From: Nanobdellota archaeon
Lineage (GTDB): Archaea > Nanobdellota > Nanobdellia > Pacearchaeales > GW2011-AR1
Assembly (NCBI GenBank): GCA_038045945.1
Contig: JBBSXC010000004.1
Location: 240,425 to 304,424 of the forward strand
Reading direction: 5' to 3'
Length of the DNA stretch: 64,000 bases
Part shown: positions 2,594-10,915 of the stretch, in pieces
Numbering within the stretch: position 1 is the stretch's first letter
Layout of the letters: each line of letters opens with the position of its first letter
Notes under the pieces: model-generated
Told to the model about the DNA's origin: nothing
The model's database searches: none
Seen by the model: the letters and a program-made list of their open reading frames with translations, nothing else
Made by a program: the position numbers and the translations under genes

Positions 2594-2971
2594 ATGGTTA
2601 GGGTAGTATTTGATAAGGGAAAGCAGAAGGAATTTTTTGATTTAATAAAAGAAAAGATAAAACTCTTATCACTAAGATCAATAAACCAGTACGGGATTGA
2701 AACAAACTACTCCACAATTAAGAACTATTATAATGAAAAAAGACTAATGCCTGAATCATTACTCAAAGAACTATGCTACTTAGCAAAAATAAACATTGAA
2801 GAGTTAAAAGTAAAATACGCTAATGATAACTGGGGTCAAATAAAAGGGGGAAAGAAAGGGATAATAACACTAAGAAAAAATTATGCTAATAAAGTAGCCT
2901 TTTGGAGAAGAAAAGGGGGAAAGGCCAAGGCAAAAAAACATGAAAGCAAGCTATCAACAATCTTTATATAA
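2594..2971 (+). CDS. Putative HTH DNA-binding protein with a WGQIKGGKKG tail
   Basis: XRE-like pattern (NYSTIKNYYNEKRLMP) and a basic KGG-repeat C-terminus. Confidence 0.55.
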   Translation: MVRVVFDKGKQKEFFDLIKEKIKLLSLRSINQYGIETNYSTIKNYYNEKRLMPESLLKELCYLAKINIEELKVKYANDNWGQIKGGKKGIITLRKNYANKVAFWRRKGGKAKAKKHESKLSTIFI

Positions 2972-2996
2972 GGATCTAGATTTTCCATTTAAACTC

Positions 2997-3070
2997 GGCC
3001 GTATAGTCTAGCTGGTTACGACGCCTCTTTGACGTAGAGGAGATCCCTGGTTCGAATCCAGGTACGACCA
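2997..3070 (+). tRNA. tRNA-Val(GAC) with a C3:A70 acceptor mismatch
   Basis: GGCCGTA...CCTCT-TTGACGT-AGAGG...CCTGG-TTCGAAT-CCAGG-TACGACC-A; TATA element about 25 nt upstream. Confidence 0.9.
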
Positions 3071-3117
3071 TGTCCTTGACGTGGACAATTCCGCAGTTCG
3101 ATCCTGCGGTAGGGCCA
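3071..3117 (+). other. Second tRNA-Val(GAC)-like 3' fragment (anticodon arm, T arm, acceptor 3' strand)
   Basis: TGTCC-TTGACGT-GGACA, then ATT, then CCGCAG-TTCGATC-CTGCGG, then TAGGGCC-A; both stems pair perfectly. Confidence 0.8.
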
Positions 3118-3217
3118 CCCAATTTAAAAAAAAACATTTTCTCTGATGAGGGGTCGGTTTTTTGGTTCTGCATGGGACCATAAATAATTAAAGCACTAAG
3201 ATAAATAATTATTCGTT

Positions 3218-3529
3218 ATGCTTAAAAGAACTACAGTTTACTACGATTCTAAAACGGCAGACCCGACAACTCCTGGAGTAAGCCATTTAATAATCGAAGA
3301 AGGAAAAATAGGTTACATTACAGCAACACTCTACATCACTAGAAGACTAGAGGTATCTCTTAAAGAAGGACAAAGACTAGTGCCCATTGGTGAAGCAAGA
3401 GAAAAGTATGATTTTAGGGAAATAATGCCCCCATATATTGATCAAAGAGCAATAAGAGAACTTGAAGAGGAGAGAGATCAAGAAATAAGAGAAGGAATAA
3501 GTAGAAGAATAGGAAGAAAAGTAGCTTAA
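3218..3529 (+). CDS. Hypothetical protein
   Basis: 103-aa ORF with plausible composition. Confidence 0.55.
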   Translation: MLKRTTVYYDSKTADPTTPGVSHLIIEEGKIGYITATLYITRRLEVSLKEGQRLVPIGEAREKYDFREIMPPYIDQRAIRELEEERDQEIREGISRRIGRKVA

Positions 3530-3573: not shown

Positions 3574-5472
3574 ATGCTTATTAAAGGGGTAAATAAGAGG
3601 GGACAAGTAACAATTTTTGTCATCATAGCACTAGTAATATTGGGAGCAATAGGAATATACTTAGCAACAAATTATTCTACAACGAATCAAGGAATACCAG
3701 AACAATTCCAAGAATTAGAAGAATACTACAATTCATGCATAAAAGAAATAGCCAGTGGGGGAATAAGTATAATAGAAAACAACGGAGGATTTATAGAAGA
3801 ACCAGAACTAATAAGAGGAAACCCACAAGAACCATTATCCTCAAAAATAAATTATTTAGGAGAAACAATACCCTACTGGTTATACCTAAATGACGGAAAA
3901 ATAGTAGAGCAAGCGCCAACAAAAAATTCTATGCAAGAACAAATAAGCAAATACATAAAAAACAGAATAAATGAATGCAACTTTGAAGATTACTCAAGCC
4001 AAGGATACATAATAGAAAGGGGAGAAAACCCTGTAGTGGAAGTAACAATCAATAACAAAGAAGTAACAACAAAGGTGACAGATCAATTAGTGTACGCAAA
4101 AGAAGAAACAAAGCAGCTGGTAAGCAACCACGAAATAAGAATAGACAGTAATCTGGGAGCACTATACAATAAAGCAATAGAACTATACAACAAAGAATTA
4201 CAAAACGAATACTTAGAAAATTATACTGTAGACATGATAAGACTATACGCACCAGTTGATGGAGTAGAAATATCATGCTCGCCAAAAGTATGGAAAGAAA
4301 AAGAAGTATTCGACGAATTAAGAGAAGCAATAGAAGCAAACACACAACAAATAATGCTGGACTCAGGAAAAAATGATGATTCAATGACAACAAAAGAAAA
4401 ATATTTCACAATACCAATAAGCAGCGACGGACTACAAACATACATGCGATACTCAAAAGACTGGCCAACAAGCATGAAAATACACCAAAGCGACGGAGGA
4501 ATACTAATAGCAAACCCGGTAGGAAACCAAGAAGGATTAGGAATACTAGGATTCTGCTACGTACCATACCACTTCGTATACGACCTAGACTACCCACTAA
4601 TGATACAAATATTCGATGAAAACAGTGAAGAGATGTTCCAATACCCAATACAAGTAATAATAAGATCAAACCACGCAAGACAAGGAATAAACCAAGTATA
4701 CCAGGGACTAGAAAACACAATCTGCAAATACAAAGTAAAAAGCATAGAAGTAAACACCTACGATGAAGAAACATTAATGCCAGTAGAAGCACAAATATCA
4801 TTCAAATGCCTAAACGAAGGATGCTACTTAGGGGAAACAAGAACAGACACAAACAATAACGCAAAAGCAACACTTAACGCACCACAATGCGTTAACGGAT
4901 TCTTAACAGCAACAGCAGAAGGATACAACAAAGGAGAATACCAAATATCAACAAATAACGAAACAATAGCAAACATACTGCTAAAAAAACAATACACACT
5001 AAACATAAACGTAAAATACGATGACGGACAAGAAGTAAAAAGCAACGCATTCATATACCTAAAACCTGCAAGAGGAAACGGAGAAGTAAAAACAGTGGTT
5101 TGGCCAGAACAAAAAACAATAACTATAACAGAAGGAGAATATAACATAACAGCATACGCATACGAATTGTCAAACATAACACTACCAGGAACAAAAGAAA
5201 AAAAGTGCTTCCAAGTACCTAGGCCAGGACTATCAGCAGTACTGGGACTAACAAAAGAACAATGCTACGACATAACAATACCAGGACAAAAAATAAGCAC
5301 GAGCATAAGTGGAGGAGGAAAAACAAACTATTACTTCACACAAAGCCAAATAAGAACACAAAAAAACGTACAAGTAACAATACCAAGAGGGCCAACACCA
5401 AGAACAATAGAAGCACTACAAACAGCATACGCAATAGCAGACAATAAACAAATAACAATAACAACACAATGA
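3574..5472 (+). CDS. Large protein with a class III (type IV pilin-like) signal peptide
   Basis: N-terminus NKRG|QVTIFVIIALVILGAIGIYL; several Cys pairs; beta-rich C-terminal region. Confidence 0.8.
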   Translation: MLIKGVNKRGQVTIFVIIALVILGAIGIYLATNYSTTNQGIPEQFQELEEYYNSCIKEIASGGISIIENNGGFIEEPELIRGNPQEPLSSKINYLGETIPYWLYLNDGKIVEQAPTKNSMQEQISKYIKNRINECNFEDYSSQGYIIERGENPVVEVTINNKEVTTKVTDQLVYAKEETKQLVSNHEIRIDSNLGALYNKAIELYNKELQNEYLENYTVDMIRLYAPVDGVEISCSPKVWKEKEVFDELREAIEANTQQIMLDSGKNDDSMTTKEKYFTIPISSDGLQTYMRYSKDWPTSMKIHQSDGGILIANPVGNQEGLGILGFCYVPYHFVYDLDYPLMIQIFDENSEEMFQYPIQVIIRSNHARQGINQVYQGLENTICKYKVKSIEVNTYDEETLMPVEAQISFKCLNEGCYLGETRTDTNNNAKATLNAPQCVNGFLTATAEGYNKGEYQISTNNETIANILLKKQYTLNINVKYDDGQEVKSNAFIYLKPARGNGEVKTVVWPEQKTITITEGEYNITAYAYELSNITLPGTKEKKCFQVPRPGLSAVLGLTKEQCYDITIPGQKISTSISGGGKTNYYFTQSQIRTQKNVQVTIPRGPTPRTIEALQTAYAIADNKQITITTQ

Positions 5473-5522
5473 AAACAGGTAAATTTTCAAGCATTAAATT
5501 ATGGAACAATTTAACACAATGA
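5467..5522 (+). promoter_or_regulatory. Intergenic promoter-like element, copy 1 (47/56 nt identical to 46976-47031)
   Basis: caatgaaaacaggtaaattttcaagcattaaa-N11-tttaacacaatga. Confidence 0.7.
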
Positions 5523-8500
5523 AAGTAAAAAAATACTATTTTTACATAACAATAATACTGTTATCAATAATAGCAATAACAAACGCAGAAGCAATAACAA
5601 ACTTCCAAACATTCAACCAAGAAAGAGGTCTAGTAACAAACAACTTCTGGGACATAAACCAAAAAAACGCTATATGTCAAACAGGACAAGACATGATACT
5701 AGAAATAATACCCGGAAGCTGCAGCCCAAGCGTAGTACGAAGCGACTTATTAGAAAGCCAAAACGTACCAGTATTTTGCCAAGTCACAGGAATAAAAATA
5801 AATCCATCAGTAGACCTAGGAAAAATAGCATCAGTAAGCTTCGCAGGAAGCGGAGGACTACCAGAAGGAGTGGCAGGGATATCATTCTACCCATACAGAG
5901 CAGCGGTAACACAAACAAACAACCTATTCACATCAGGAGGAGTAGCAAACATAGGAAACAGCTTAGGATACGTAGTAGTAGTGCTAAAACAAACACCAGT
6001 AGAAAAAGACATGCCAGGGGCAATAATGTTAAACCTAACAGCAAAAATAAGTTATGACGTAAAAAAAGTTTATGGGTCGGGAAAAGTAGAATACTTCCTA
6101 CAACAAAACACTGACGAAGAATGGAACGAAAACTACAAAGAATACGGAATATTCAAAGGACAACAATACCTAAGACTAGAAGAATTATCAATTGACGGAA
6201 CGCAAGCAAAAGTAAGCATATACAAAGACAAAGACACAATAATAAATTCAATAAACCTGAGATTAGGAGAACAATCAAGCCTGCTAAACATACCCGGATT
6301 CTACTGCGGAGCAGGAATAAGGATGAAACTAACAGGATCAGAAGCACCAAGAAAAAAAGTACAATTACAAGTGGACCAAGACACAATATGGCTACATGAA
6401 GGACAAAAATTCCTAAACGAACAATGCGTCGTACGAAGTATTGAAATAACAAACAGAACAAGAAATAACGGGCTAGAAAAAGGGATAGTAAGAATAAGCT
6501 GCCCTAAGGGAAGTTACGAACTAGAAATAAGCGAATTAGACCAAAGCCTAGGGACACAAAACATAGCCTGGGACAAAGTATTAGCAGGAATAAGCTCAGA
6601 CCCAACAAAAAAACAAATAATAGAAAGTTTTGAAAAAGCAAAAGAAGAAGCATACCTAGTAGCAGACCTATACACAAGCGAAAAAAGAAGCAATAACGAA
6701 AATTACAAACCAGGACAATTCTACGGCCTTTCAGACTTGCAAGAACTGGCAATAACAGCACAAAACCTAGGACAATATAAAACAGAACTAGAAATACAAG
6801 AAAAAATCATAAGCAAATATCCTGGAACAATTGAAGAATTAGAATCACAAAAAAGGATAGGGGAACTAAAAAACTTTTCATACATAAAAGCAAACGCAAT
6901 AACAACAGTAGACTTCTCAATACACACAATAACAATAAAAAATTATAAGAATCCAGCAGTAAGCGAAGCAAGCGTAGAATTTGACAGACCAGCAGAACCA
7001 AGGATAATAGGAGACTACATATACACAACAGACAAAAACCAAACTGCTGGAGAAGCAGCAGAAACATGGGTAAGGATAAGAGAAATAAAAAAAGACTCAA
7101 TAATACTACAAGCAAGAATAACAGAAACAATAAAAGACGCTAACGGAAAAGAAACAAAAAACGTTAGAAGCGCAGACTACACGATGACAGAAGGACAAAC
7201 ACTAGCAACAATAAACGGACTAAACCTGCCAGGACTAATCGGGGGAATTAACGGAAACAATGTACAACTAAAAAAGATTAATCTTAAAGTAGAAGCAAAA
7301 GTAGAAGTGGTACCAGAAATATTACAAACAGGAAGCAGCAGCAACTTCACATTCAAAGTAGCAATAGAAAAAAGAGGAATAAAAATATCAACAGAAAAAA
7401 CAGAGGAGATGATAAGAAACATTAATGAATCAATAGAAAAATTCACAAAAATAACAGAAAAATTAGGCCAGGCAGTAGAAACAGGAAAAGCAGCATGCCT
7501 AGCAGGAAGCTCAGCACTATTCATTAAAAACTTCATAGCAAATGCAGGAGGAGCAGCAGGCTCAAGAGCAGAAGTAATGAACGGACCAGACGGATGGTAC
7601 CAAAAATGTGATAGGTTAGTAAAAAGTAGCCCTAGCCAATACAACAACCTAAACGACTGCTTACTAAAAAACAACGCAAACATACAAGAAGACGTAACAA
7701 AATGGACAGAAGCAGAAAAAGCAGTTAATACACAATTCGACAATGTGTACAACAAAGAAAACATAACAGGATCACAACAAGAATTCATAAAAGTATTCGC
7801 AAACGACGTGTGCGGAGGAAAACTAAAAGACAAACAAATAACCATTGAAGAAAAAACAAAAATCATTTGCGGACAAGGAGGAGTATTCGAAAACAAAGAA
7901 GCAGTAATAGCGGCTTATAACCAAGGAGACTTCACAATAGCAGACGCAAAAAAAGTAATGACTGCATCACAAACATACGGAGGAGCAAACACGATAAGCC
8001 AAAATACTGACACATTAGGAGCGCAAAAAATAAACGGTTTCTTCTCAAACATGCAAAGAAGGCCAGGACTAACAACGGCAAACTATGCTGGTGCTTTAGG
8101 AACAGCATCTGGAAAAGTATTCTCAGCATACTCGCCAGACACAAGAATAGCAAACGTTGAAGTAATTGAAGTAAAAGCGGGAGACAAACTAGGGGGGACG
8201 GTTGATGTGAAAGAGGGAAGATACACACTAATATCTGTAGCACCAGGAACAAGATTCGCCGACCCTGCATCAACAACAAAACTAGCAGGAAAAGTATTAG
8301 TAGTGCCAGTAACAACAGACGCATCAGGAAACGTACAATTAAACGAAAGCGACCCAACAAAAAACATAATAATAGACTCGAATGGAAAAAATGTGGACAC
8401 ATTCACAAGAGACGAATACGGGCAGGTATTAGGACAAAACAAAATATCAAGCTTCAAATCAATAACAGAATCACAAGCATCATGCTCAAACTATTACCAA

Positions 8501-10915
8501 AACCCAACAGTAAAATACTTCACAAGCGGACAATACAGCGGACTACCAGCAGTAGTACCAATAGATACAGCAAAAGGGTGGTACGTAGCAACAAAAGACA
8601 GCGAACTAGCGCCATACACAGAAGCAGGACAACTAAGAACATTCTGGATTTGTAACGTAGGAAAAGATGGACTAGAACAATTCGATTACGACACAGACGA
8701 CAAACACACATGCTTCCAAGTAAACCTGGATAAAGGAACACCAGTAGACCAAAGCTACTGCTTTAACGAAGCAGAAACAAGGCAAATAATCAGCAGAGCA
8801 CAACAAGCAATCGGGCAAGCAGGAAAATACGACCAAGGAAGAACAAAAACAAACATCCTTGGAACAAACTACAACATAGAAAAAGTAGCATCAAGCGCAC
8901 CAGGAACACAATGCCAAGACTTCATGAGCCCAAGCGATTGTAACATAATGTTCAATCTGTGCGACCCGGTAATATGCCCAGCAAGCAGATGCGACCTAGG
9001 AGGAACATACAGAGTTGACGACGTAATACAATCAGGAATAGCAGGAAGCATAGCACTATGCTTACCAAACGCAAAAGAAGGAATATATGTGCCAATATGC
9101 TTATCAGGAATATACGCGGGCCTGGACGCATACACAAGCGTGCAAAAAGCACACAGAGACTGCCTACAAAATTCCCTCGCAACAGGACAATACACAGGAC
9201 TGTGTGACGAAATAAGATCAGTATACATGTGCGAATTCTTCTGGAGACAAGCAACACCAATAATAAAAGCAGGAATACCAAAACTAATAGAAGGATTAAC
9301 ATCAAGCAACACCGCAAGAGCTGGAGGAGAATACTCAAACTTCCAAAAAGCATACACAACAGCAGACCAATCAGTAAACTACTTCACACAAGTATACGGA
9401 CAACAAGCATTCTCAGCATTCAAAATAAGAAGCACGGCAGACATAGGAACACAAGTATGCCAACAATTCGCATCAGCAAACTACCCAGACAGCGCAAGCA
9501 TAATAGACTCACTAATAAAACCAGAAAGCCCAGTACAATTCTACGCACAATTCGACGAAATACCATACAGCGAAGCAACAGTACCGCCAACAAGCCAATA
9601 CAACGTATTCTACCACATATACGCAGGAAAAGAAAAAGGAACATACTTCACAGTATACCTAAAGAACCCCCCACAAAACGGGCTATACGCAGGACAAGAA
9701 ACAATACTAATAAACCAAGGGTTCATACCAGCAGGAGAATACGATTCACAAAAAATAGAAAAAACACTACCATCAGGATACAGAGAACTATGCGTAAACA
9801 TTAACGGAAAAGACGAATGCGGATTCCAAAAAGTAACAACAGACTACGGAATAAACACGCTAGGAGACAAATACGCACAAGAACAAGCAACAAACCAAGC
9901 AGTAACAAAAGAAGAAGAATGCATAAACGGAGACTCAAGCATATACTCACTAGCAAATTCGAATCTAGAAGCAGGTCTGGATAATGCTCTAAACCCTGCA
10001 ATATACCAACAAGGAATAATAAGAATGTGCTCTGCACAAAACCCAGGACAAAACGCAGGAGATAACACAGGCCTAGAAACAGTAAGGTGGAAAGACGTAG
10101 GATACTGCACAGACCAAAAAATAAGATGCTGGTTAGACACAACAAGCGTGAAAGAAGTAATAAAAAACAAACAAATACAAAACCAAACAATAGAACAGGT
10201 AAGCCAACAACTTGGAGAACCATCACAAGGACAAGCAGAACAAAGAATAAGCGCAGCACTAGGAATAATAAACGGGGTAACATTCGCAGCAATACAACCA
10301 GCACAACTGTATCCTAGCATAATTGACCCAATGACAGAAATAGAACAAGACGCATTCCCATCATTCACAAAAGTACGCGCAACAGACACAAAATTCCAAG
10401 CATTCATAAAAATAGTAAACGGGCTATACGCAGGACAAACAATAAACAACATAAATACAATAAGCACAAATGTAGCAAACGCAACAGCACAAATAAAAAG
10501 AGACTGCGAAATAACAGGGTACACAATACCCCCAGTAAACCCATTAACTACAGGAAAAACATTACCATTCCTAATAAACTTCGCAGGACAATGCAACGAT
10601 TGGAACACAACAACAGTAGAGCTAATAAAAATTGGAGATCCGAACTACGCAAACCAAGATTTTACTCAACAAACATACCAGCATCAAATTGATTTGCAAA
10701 AAGAAAAAGGAGTATTCTCACAAAACATAGCGCTAACAGAAAAGGGAAAATATTTCCTAAAAATAAGTTTAACATACAAAGACTCACAAGGAAGAACATT
10801 CACAGAAATAAGTTATAACGGAAAAGGAAAACAACAATTCGAAGTAATAGACGGAGGAGCAAGCGGAGCGACAAACCAAAGTCCAGGAGCTCCAGGAACT
10901 TTAGGAAACCCCTAA
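5519..10915 (+). CDS. Large secreted Cys-rich protein (about 1800 aa)
   Basis: Signal peptide MKVKKYYFYITIILLSIIAITNAEA; many Cys clusters such as CQDFMSPSDCNIMFNLCDPVICPASRCD. Start placed at 5519 by alignment with the duplicated promoter element. Confidence 0.8.
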   Translation: MKVKKYYFYITIILLSIIAITNAEAITNFQTFNQERGLVTNNFWDINQKNAICQTGQDMILEIIPGSCSPSVVRSDLLESQNVPVFCQVTGIKINPSVDLGKIASVSFAGSGGLPEGVAGISFYPYRAAVTQTNNLFTSGGVANIGNSLGYVVVVLKQTPVEKDMPGAIMLNLTAKISYDVKKVYGSGKVEYFLQQNTDEEWNENYKEYGIFKGQQYLRLEELSIDGTQAKVSIYKDKDTIINSINLRLGEQSSLLNIPGFYCGAGIRMKLTGSEAPRKKVQLQVDQDTIWLHEGQKFLNEQCVVRSIEITNRTRNNGLEKGIVRISCPKGSYELEISELDQSLGTQNIAWDKVLAGISSDPTKKQIIESFEKAKEEAYLVADLYTSEKRSNNENYKPGQFYGLSDLQELAITAQNLGQYKTELEIQEKIISKYPGTIEELESQKRIGELKNFSYIKANAITTVDFSIHTITIKNYKNPAVSEASVEFDRPAEPRIIGDYIYTTDKNQTAGEAAETWVRIREIKKDSIILQARITETIKDANGKETKNVRSADYTMTEGQTLATINGLNLPGLIGGINGNNVQLKKINLKVEAKVEVVPEILQTGSSSNFTFKVAIEKRGIKISTEKTEEMIRNINESIEKFTKITEKLGQAVETGKAACLAGSSALFIKNFIANAGGAAGSRAEVMNGPDGWYQKCDRLVKSSPSQYNNLNDCLLKNNANIQEDVTKWTEAEKAVNTQFDNVYNKENITGSQQEFIKVFANDVCGGKLKDKQITIEEKTKIICGQGGVFENKEAVIAAYNQGDFTIADAKKVMTASQTYGGANTISQNTDTLGAQKINGFFSNMQRRPGLTTANYAGALGTASGKVFSAYSPDTRIANVEVIEVKAGDKLGGTVDVKEGRYTLISVAPGTRFADPASTTKLAGKVLVVPVTTDASGNVQLNESDPTKNIIIDSNGKNVDTFTRDEYGQVLGQNKISSFKSITESQASCSNYYQNPTVKYFTSGQYSGLPAVVPIDTAKGWYVATKDSELAPYTEAGQLRTFWICNVGKDGLEQFDYDTDDKHTCFQVNLDKGTPVDQSYCFNEAETRQIISRAQQAIGQAGKYDQGRTKTNILGTNYNIEKVASSAPGTQCQDFMSPSDCNIMFNLCDPVICPASRCDLGGTYRVDDVIQSGIAGSIALCLPNAKEGIYVPICLSGIYAGLDAYTSVQKAHRDCLQNSLATGQYTGLCDEIRSVYMCEFFWRQATPIIKAGIPKLIEGLTSSNTARAGGEYSNFQKAYTTADQSVNYFTQVYGQQAFSAFKIRSTADIGTQVCQQFASANYPDSASIIDSLIKPESPVQFYAQFDEIPYSEATVPPTSQYNVFYHIYAGKEKGTYFTVYLKNPPQNGLYAGQETILINQGFIPAGEYDSQKIEKTLPSGYRELCVNINGKDECGFQKVTTDYGINTLGDKYAQEQATNQAVTKEEECINGDSSIYSLANSNLEAGLDNALNPAIYQQGIIRMCSAQNPGQNAGDNTGLETVRWKDVGYCTDQKIRCWLDTTSVKEVIKNKQIQNQTIEQVSQQLGEPSQGQAEQRISAALGIINGVTFAAIQPAQLYPSIIDPMTEIEQDAFPSFTKVRATDTKFQAFIKIVNGLYAGQTINNINTISTNVANATAQIKRDCEITGYTIPPVNPLTTGKTLPFLINFAGQCNDWNTTTVELIKIGDPNYANQDFTQQTYQHQIDLQKEKGVFSQNIALTEKGKYFLKISLTYKDSQGRTFTEISYNGKGKQQFEVIDGGASGATNQSPGAPGTLGNP

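Follow-up and report, generated by a model that had tools for sequence, protein, structure and literature searches.

A tRNA-Val(GAC) gene joined directly to part of a different tRNA-Val(GAC) gene, a probable relic of gene replacement in an archaeal genome

Partial tRNA genes are known as footprints of integration, and in the part of the report by van der Gulik et al. 2023 (PMC9897764) that is used here such footprints appear as 44-bp repeats that extend from the anticodon arm to the 3′ end of the tRNA gene; at the tRNA-Gln gene of Pyrococcus yayanosii, 44-bp repeats of this kind flank the 21.4-kb island PYG1. For Caldiarchaeum subterraneum, the relevant sections of Sugahara et al. 2012 (PMC3293823) describe a 5′ fragment of tRNA-Thr that an insertion encoding a recombinase separates from the gene, at a distance of 1.8 kb, a layout that is interpreted there as the outcome of mobile-element recombination and that varies within the population. 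Split and tri-split tRNA genes have been described from Nanoarchaeum equitans, Caldivirga maquilingensis and members of the Desulfurococcales, and tRNA loci are regarded as rearrangement hot spots, according to the portions of Chan et al. 2011 (PMC3218864) drawn upon here.

The locus analyzed in the present work lies in a stretch of 64,000 nucleotides (the window, G000:C4:240425-304424) of a metagenome-assembled genome of 847 kb in 7 contigs, which is 93% complete. A complete tRNA-Val(GAC) gene is present on the plus strand at 2997-3070, where it was found both by ARAGORN, which called it Val(GAC), and by the Rfam model RF00005 for canonical tRNAs, with a score of 58.3 bits against a gathering threshold of 29 and with model positions 1-71 fully covered. 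The gene has a 5-nt variable loop, AGATC, and the T loop TTCGAAT, and its acceptor stem contains a C3:A70 mismatch in the ARAGORN drawing. It is the sole copy of the GAC isoacceptor among the 41 tRNA genes found in the assembly, and several tRNA genes of this genome contain introns. A TATA-box-like element, TTTATATA, can be read at 2963-2970 on the plus strand, about 30 nt upstream of the tRNA and overlapping the stop of an ORF at 2594-2971, and is the putative promoter of tRNA-Val(GAC).

The last nucleotide of the gene, A3070, is followed with a gap of 0 nt by a 47-nt piece at 3071-3117 on the same strand (remnant 1), which sequence reading, BLAST and alignments assign to positions 27-73 of a family-type tRNA-Val(GAC). 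The piece comprises an anticodon arm (TGTCC at 3071-3075, the loop TTGACGT at 3076-3082 and GGACA at 3083-3087), a variable loop, ATTC, a T arm (CGCAG at 3092-3096, TTCGATC, and CTGCG at 3104-3108), an extra G at 3109, the acceptor strand TAGGGCC at 3110-3116 and the discriminator A3117. This is in agreement with the original prediction, which had read from the letters of the DNA a second anticodon arm, T arm and 3′ acceptor strand directly after the discriminator, with paired stems and the same anticodon loop as in the gene, and had observed that the stems of the two copies differ in sequence yet pair fully; TACGAC likewise precedes both anticodon arms, the first at a distance of 1 nt (3017-3022) and the second at a distance of 2 nt (3063-3068). 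The architecture of a tRNA 3′ portion thus stands as predicted, however, the spacing from T stem to discriminator is not the 7 nt of the prediction but 8 nt, with the extra G3109, and the whole piece measures 47 nt versus 46 nt in the aligned family genes of the same architecture. G3109 is opposed by a gap in every other row of a 16-sequence MAFFT alignment, and we count this 1-nt insertion as a probable sign of decay that favors a relic. When 2900-3250 was searched with RF00005 at E ≤ 10, the gene at 2997-3070 was the sole match, and 3071-3117 taken by itself received no tRNA score.

The reading that we prefer, with a probability of roughly 0.8, is that 3071-3117 is a non-functional relic of the replacement of tRNA-Val(GAC) at a recombination-prone tRNA locus. 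Remnant 1 would then be the back two-thirds (positions 27-73) of the former tRNA-Val(GAC) of this lineage, still attached to part of the old downstream flank, and the complete gene at 2997-3070 would be of a divergent type, otherwise seen in sister families, that has taken the place of the old gene and serves as the functional copy today. A displaced older gene half was among the explanations first put forward for the piece, and it is supported in substance by the lineage-typical sequence of 3071-3117 with its native flank, by the sister-family type of the gene, and by scars in relatives.

The two parts differ in their origin. In a comparison with 40 relatives, genomes of the same family match the second piece, and other families of the order match the complete gene. 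BLAST in 400 family genomes placed ~118 of 143 non-self rows (our count) on remnant 1, and with the best of these at 89-93% identity and E values down to 1.6e-13 against the tRNA-Val(GAC) of relatives, the match is not due to chance. Global alignment of remnant 1 with the loci L003, L033 and L046 gives 42/47 identical positions (89.4%), and its identity to own-family tRNA-Val(GAC) genes is 87-89%. The complete gene, at E ≤ 1e-8, was matched in 0 of 355 own-family genomes versus 11 of 45 genomes from other families (6/24 in f4, 4/4 in f8 and 1/5 in f9), and its best match, in G440, is 86% identical. Both its variable loop, AGATC, and its T arm, CCTGG-TTCGAAT-CCAGG, are of the type of those other families, and its 3′ part reaches at most 73% identity to any family sequence fetched; the tRNA-Val(TAC) of the source genome itself is of family type.

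Between the gene and remnant 1, the two 3′ parts are identical at 32 of 49 aligned positions (65%). A recent tandem duplication of positions 27-73 by slippage between the TACGAC copies was considered and rejected, given that the two units are 65% alike and the second is 87-89% like relatives. A donor of the complete gene was not found; viral contigs gave 0 matches to its 3′ end and 0 matches to a degenerate pattern of the family-type remnant, and there is no further copy of either part elsewhere in the source genome. The same-genus genome G001 is without this region and has only weak paralogues of the neighboring 632-aa protein.

The single 5′ strand of the gene, GGCCGTA, pairs with either 3′ strand with one mismatch, as had been predicted, i.e., C3:A70 in the gene itself and G5:G68 in a molecule joined in silico from the 5′ part and the second 3′ part (ARAGORN drawings). 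Two explanations are possible for the C3:A70 mismatch and for this double fit, namely a strand in transition or a mutation in a co-inherited stem. The strand could be composed of native GGCC and foreign GTA, or could be a native strand midway through compensatory change. The first tRNAs of two family genomes of one genus, G294 and G327, have the acceptor stem GGGCGTA/TACGCCC, similar to that of the window, which argues for a co-inherited stem.

The double fit is also the starting point for a nested tRNA, in which the 5′ part (2997-3022/3023) would be joined to 3071-3117 in RNA and yield a second tRNA-Val(GAC) isoform. ARAGORN accepts the molecule joined in silico as tRNA-Val, and in the minimum-energy fold the partner of the 5′ strand is the distal 3′ strand, however, no bulge-helix-bulge is found across the required splice sites. 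The same script recovers the intron of our positive control, tRNA-Thr(TGT) at 1445-1547 on the minus strand, which has a 31-nt intron at the canonical position and in our scan a bulge-helix-bulge with outer, central and inner helices of 5, 4 and 7 bp. At the Val locus, this simple, home-made script, which relaxed motifs could escape, returned just two weak candidates with nonsensical products. The joined molecule would furthermore need an 8-bp acceptor stem that swallows U8, which pairs with the extra G, and both products would have the same anticodon, so that nothing would be gained. In G294 and G327, the distal 3′ strand of the equivalent piece (CAGGGCC or CGGGGCC) cannot pair with the upstream 5′ strand GGGCGTA. 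Alternative processing into a nested tRNA, one of the possibilities originally raised, is by our estimate highly improbable.

Another of these possibilities is a split tRNA, in which 3071-3117 would be a 3′ half that is trans-spliced, in the manner of Nanoarchaeum and Caldivirga, to a 5′ half encoded elsewhere. Such an assignment fits a small-genome archaeon with intron-containing tRNAs, and the arms of the piece are intact. Against it, no sequence with ≤7 mismatches to any family 5′ part (26 nt) occurs outside the known tRNA genes, and a D-arm follows 0 of the 23 GGCCCTA sites and 0 of the 31 GCCCTAC sites in the genome, i.e., the two sequences with which the orphan 5′ half had been predicted to start. 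No orphan 5′ half was found in the 847-kb assembly, whose 93% completeness leaves the absence unproven. With the preceding gene directly adjacent, the piece also lacks a promoter of its own, it carries the 1-nt insertion before the acceptor strand, and a complete tRNA-Val(GAC) is already present. We judge a split-tRNA piece to be very unlikely, and for annotation 3071-3117 should be marked as a tRNA gene fragment, not as a split or second tRNA.

The junction between gene and remnant 1 is present in read-derived contigs and in a related strain, and is no assembly chimera. A Logan contig of 420 nt from run X3, the sample of which may be the assembly's own source, covers 2916-3335 with 0 differences, and a second one of 151 nt from run X5, which belongs to another study, covers 2997-3085 with 0 differences; the 57-nt upstream flank of the X5 contig is similar but not identical to the window, and the contig extends just 15 nt beyond the junction. 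The original prediction had named a chimeric junction as the finding that would undo it, and these two contigs carry the junction intact. One may suspect that tRNA-Val loci of two strains were misjoined, in view of a 7-contig metagenome assembly and of several related tRNA-Val(GAC) variants in the samples. Besides the contigs of X3 and X5, this is opposed by the at most ~10 nt that both parts have in common at the junction, which is insufficient for a k-mer mis-join, and by similar layouts in four other assemblies, and the probability that we leave to an artefact is close to negligible. Runs X1 and X2, although listed as containing the whole stretch, yielded other organisms' tRNA-Val pieces only, from which no conclusion is drawn, and the 13 runs listed include none on record as RNA. 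The exact junction 27-mer had 0 matches in genome contigs. Ten matches of a junction 19-mer in metagenome contigs were set aside as chance, all of them lying in unrelated, apparently coding sequence without tRNA context.

Downstream of remnant 1, the flank at 3121-3146 on the plus strand, ATTTAAAAAAAAACATTTTCTCTGAT, resembles the conserved region TTTAAAAA...ATTTTCTCT in the MAFFT alignment of 16 sequences, which in relatives is the intergenic promoter region between tRNA-Val and the gene for ribosomal protein L44e. Several BLAST alignments extend past the end of remnant 1 into this flank (e.g., G402, query 110-181), and ATTTAAAAAAAAACATTTTCTCTGAT, although a short stretch, is probably homologous to the Val-L44e intergenic region. 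Further downstream, 47 nt beyond remnant 1, lies remnant 2 (GGTTCTGCATGGGACCAT, 3164-3181 on the plus strand), which copies the final 15-16 nt of the tRNA-Val(GAC) type that is commonest in the family and contains the T-stem 3′ strand, the acceptor 3′ strand TGGGACC and the discriminator. It differs from both the complete gene and remnant 1, and matches nine family sequences at 14/15 and 15/16 positions, with E values of 0.002-0.009 in 1.2 kb. Places with ≤2 mismatches to any family 3′ end number 5 in the 847-kb genome; 3 of these, remnant 2 among them, are in this locus, and one of the other two is inside a transporter ORF. The locus is layered: behind the working gene there is a long remnant, and then a short, older one. 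Two candidates were rejected in the course of these searches: a 17-mer at C3:122758 with resemblance to the gene's 3′ end is part of an ABC-transporter-like ORF and is attributed to chance, and TGATGA at 3143-3148, read as a C/D-box, has no D box and no Rfam match.

The usual gene order in relatives is the 632-aa homologue (divergent), tRNA-Val, L44e, S3Ae and tRNA-Thr; in some of them a homologue of the 125-aa ORF is interposed. In the window, and in G300 and G068, tRNA-Val is oriented away from L44e and is thus inverted versus most relatives, and the upstream flank ...CCATTTAAA... is common to these tRNA-Val loci. Since the locus is also inverted, its history comprises more than one event. 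Neither Pfam nor PHROGs gives a match for the large ORFs at 3574-5472 and 5501-10915 on the plus strand (632 and 1804 aa); the 632-aa protein is a conserved neighbor, with homologues that adjoin tRNA-Val(GAC) in many family genomes (34-47% identity). The spacer that separates L44e from the divergently oriented 125-aa ORF contains, at 2537-2559, an inverted repeat, CTATGGGTC-CATCAT-GACCATAG in minus-strand reading, which immediately precedes the TATA-like TTTATAAA of L44e.

A complete gene followed by a piece that starts from position 27 was also found in four other family genomes, of three other genera; counts of this kind are lower bounds, as the pattern scan of 401 genomes that yielded G294 and G327 missed G299 by one base of spacing, and the relatives are metagenome-assembled genomes with junctions known from the assemblies alone. 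In ~300 nt at the end of a contig of G299 (L045, C36), TATTC-TGACTT-GGATG...TGGGACCA comes after the discriminator of a complete non-family-type tRNA-Val(GAC), and is a remnant with a 6-nt loop that is 93.5% identical to positions 27-73 of the intact gene of G013; after a 125-nt spacer there is a 21-nt 3′-end copy, and then the native L44e flank. In G294 (L087, C29) and G327 (L088, C9), a piece that starts at position 27 and has a 41-42-nt insert at 37/38 adjoins the complete gene GGGCGTA...TACGCCCA downstream, with no nucleotide in between. Between these two genomes, the gene is identical at 71/71 positions and the upstream 150 nt are 90% identical, and the remnants are 83% identical over the first 58 nt and then 61%, with strong divergence beyond position 42 and unrelated DNA downstream. 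The G294 remnant has uncompensated changes in the anticodon stem and the T stem, and the remnants of this genus behave as unconstrained DNA does. A bulge-helix-bulge motif (5, 4 and 4 bp) in G294 and G327 could formally join gene position 37 to remnant position 38, with the acceptor strands unpaired.

Shorter scars are present at other tRNA-Val(GAC) loci. G147 (L055, C1) has two 3′-end copies of 14-20 nt, 50 and 120 nt downstream of tRNA-Val(GAC), and G248 (L097, C127) has one copy of 16 nt, 38 nt downstream. In G345 (L046, C3), a 36-nt direct repeat is made up of flanking sequence from upstream and the tRNA's first 14 nt, with the repeats 27 nt apart. Near the other 40 tRNA genes of the source genome, 3′-end or 5′-end copies amounted to two weak candidates, no more than in controls and both outside the window, one at C3 ~50,730, 319 nt downstream of tRNA-Asp(GTC) (14/16), and the other at C4 ~233,790, 31 nt downstream of tRNA-Gln(TTG) (13/16). 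The tRNA pattern also caught by chance a 39-nt sequence with an internal inverted repeat, GTTCAAACCACTCGTTACAAACGAGTGGAATTCTGACAT, on several contigs of G072 (four contigs) and G282, which resembles a dispersed or CRISPR-like repeat.

Homology-facilitated illegitimate recombination and microhomology-mediated deletion are known from naturally transformable bacteria. For the replacement of tRNA-Val(GAC), we propose that a second copy of the gene arrived, either with a tRNA-targeting element that integrated or through recombination with foreign DNA, and that the stretch separating the end of the new gene from position 27 of the old one was subsequently lost, probably via a similarity of 9-10 nt between the 3′ end of the new gene, GGTACGACCA, and the D-arm of the old gene, GGTAGACCA. 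An older event would have left the shorter 3′-end copy at 3164-3181, and only outcomes that keep one intact gene would survive. The relic, which today has no promoter, would at most be transcribed in the 3′ trailer and be removed by the RNase Z cut after A3070.

The candidate junction microhomology GGTACGACCA occupies 3061-3070 on the plus strand, includes the second TACGAC (3063-3068), and aligns with the family D-loop/D-stem sequence GGTAGACCA or GGTAGAACA; it is for this reason that ~21 family BLAST alignments (our count) begin at query position 102, i.e., at window position 3061, 10 nt before the junction. At the junctions of relatives the resemblance is weaker in G294 and G327 (TGGTACGCCCA versus TGGTAGAACA) and weak in G299 (TGGC...CA). 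There is no element or integrase between gene and remnant, the flanking ORFs match neither Pfam nor PHROGs, and the only tyrosine recombinase gene (PF00589) is at C4:176880-177368, ~64 kb upstream of the window. With no element and a gap of 0 nt, the classical attL-element-attR layout is absent, and loss of the intervening DNA has to be assumed. A crossover in the anticodon loop, as in classical integration, was rejected because both anticodon stems are internally complementary yet mutually different. A retro-copy of a tRNA was also considered, and no CCA is encoded after position 73.

Some observations count against a relic. Both stems of remnant 1 are still perfect, and the X5 contig is identical over the first 15 nt of the remnant despite its diverged upstream flank, which could hint at constraint or at a very recent event, 15 nt being too few to decide. 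Remnant 1 is followed by native-like flank, but simple serial integration predicts native flank after the last remnant; together with the inversion relative to L44e, this makes the history more complex than two steps. Chance deletion does not fully account for the 73|27 register seen in three lineages, and the microhomology is strong (9-10 nt) in the window only.

It is this register, with a divergent gene fused at its discriminator to resident position 27 in the window, in G299 and in G294/G327, that together with the element-free 3′-end stacks raises the idea of a dedicated process as opposed to random decay. Such a process might take the form of tRNA-gene-sized replacement cassettes, or of integrase-made products that overwrite the resident gene from its 5′ side in a fixed register. 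We consider a dedicated process unlikely; if true, it would mean that the tRNA gene is mobile or self-propagating, or that tRNA genes turn over by a new route, and a junction register fixed by mechanism would amount to a new route of tRNA gene replacement.

The intact hairpins could also point to a role in cis without a tRNA being made, in which the remnant would act as a spare attachment site (decoy or landing pad) or as a structured 3′ trailer that affects RNase Z processing or termination. In the decoy variant, integrases would target the core of tRNA-Val from anticodon arm to 3′ end there and spare the essential gene. The piece does span this core, which archaeal tRNA-targeting integrases use to judge from the 44-bp repeats in the cited part of PMC9897764, and recombination has repeatedly affected this locus in relatives. 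Read-through from the tRNA promoter is likely, as 3070-3117 contains no T-run, and in the minimum-energy fold the remnant's 3′ strand is taken up by the gene's 5′ strand. However, the fold of 2997-3120 is no better than that of shuffled sequence (z = -1.49), no integrase or element is near the site in the source genome, and the equivalent pieces in relatives are decayed, not conserved, so that a cis role seems decidedly unlikely.

As a relic of gene replacement, the locus provides a clean example of an essential single-copy tRNA gene that would have been exchanged for a divergent version, with the back part of the old gene and older fragments layered behind it, in a reduced archaeal genome and with no visible mobile element at the site. 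With the scars in the family, tRNA-Val(GAC) is marked as a recombination hot spot, and these loci are material for asking how tRNA genes turn over and become disrupted in these archaea.

In homology-facilitated illegitimate recombination, a join of foreign and resident DNA at few shared bases leaves a partial duplicate of the resident sequence, and the window resembles this with GGTA(C)GACCA at 3061-3070 as the shared bases; unlike in the bacterial process, the mechanism in the window is deduced from the junction sequence alone and the host is an archaeon. With the split tRNAs, as the cited portions of PMC3218864 present them, the locus shares a stand-alone tRNA 3′ portion in an archaeon of a kind whose tRNA genes are often disrupted, but it has no partner 5′ half, own promoter, complementary leader or bulge-helix-bulge, and the gene with the same anticodon is complete. 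The layout in Caldiarchaeum subterraneum, to the extent that it is set out in the sections of PMC3293823 used here, is similar in that a tRNA gene fragment lies beside a differently structured full copy of the same isoacceptor, and differs in that the fragment there is a 5′ piece with a 1.8-kb insertion present, whereas the window has a 3′ piece and no insertion.

The attL/attR partial genes in the cited part of PMC9897764 are likewise same-strand, downstream partial copies of the same isoacceptor, of 44 bp there and 47 nt here. As in such systems, the incoming 3′ part would here belong to the complete gene and the resident one to the displaced piece, and stacked fragments such as remnant 2 are expected from repeated events. 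The window departs from them in that gene and fragment are contiguous (0 nt), with neither an element nor an integrase, in that its copies are 65% identical and not near-identical repeats, and in that the whole complete gene, not the 3′ part alone, is of non-family type. As a tRNA gene fragment, the piece at 3071-3117 belongs to a known kind of feature, and its form is unusual, with neither gap nor element, with divergent copies, with layered remnants and with a register that recurs in relatives.
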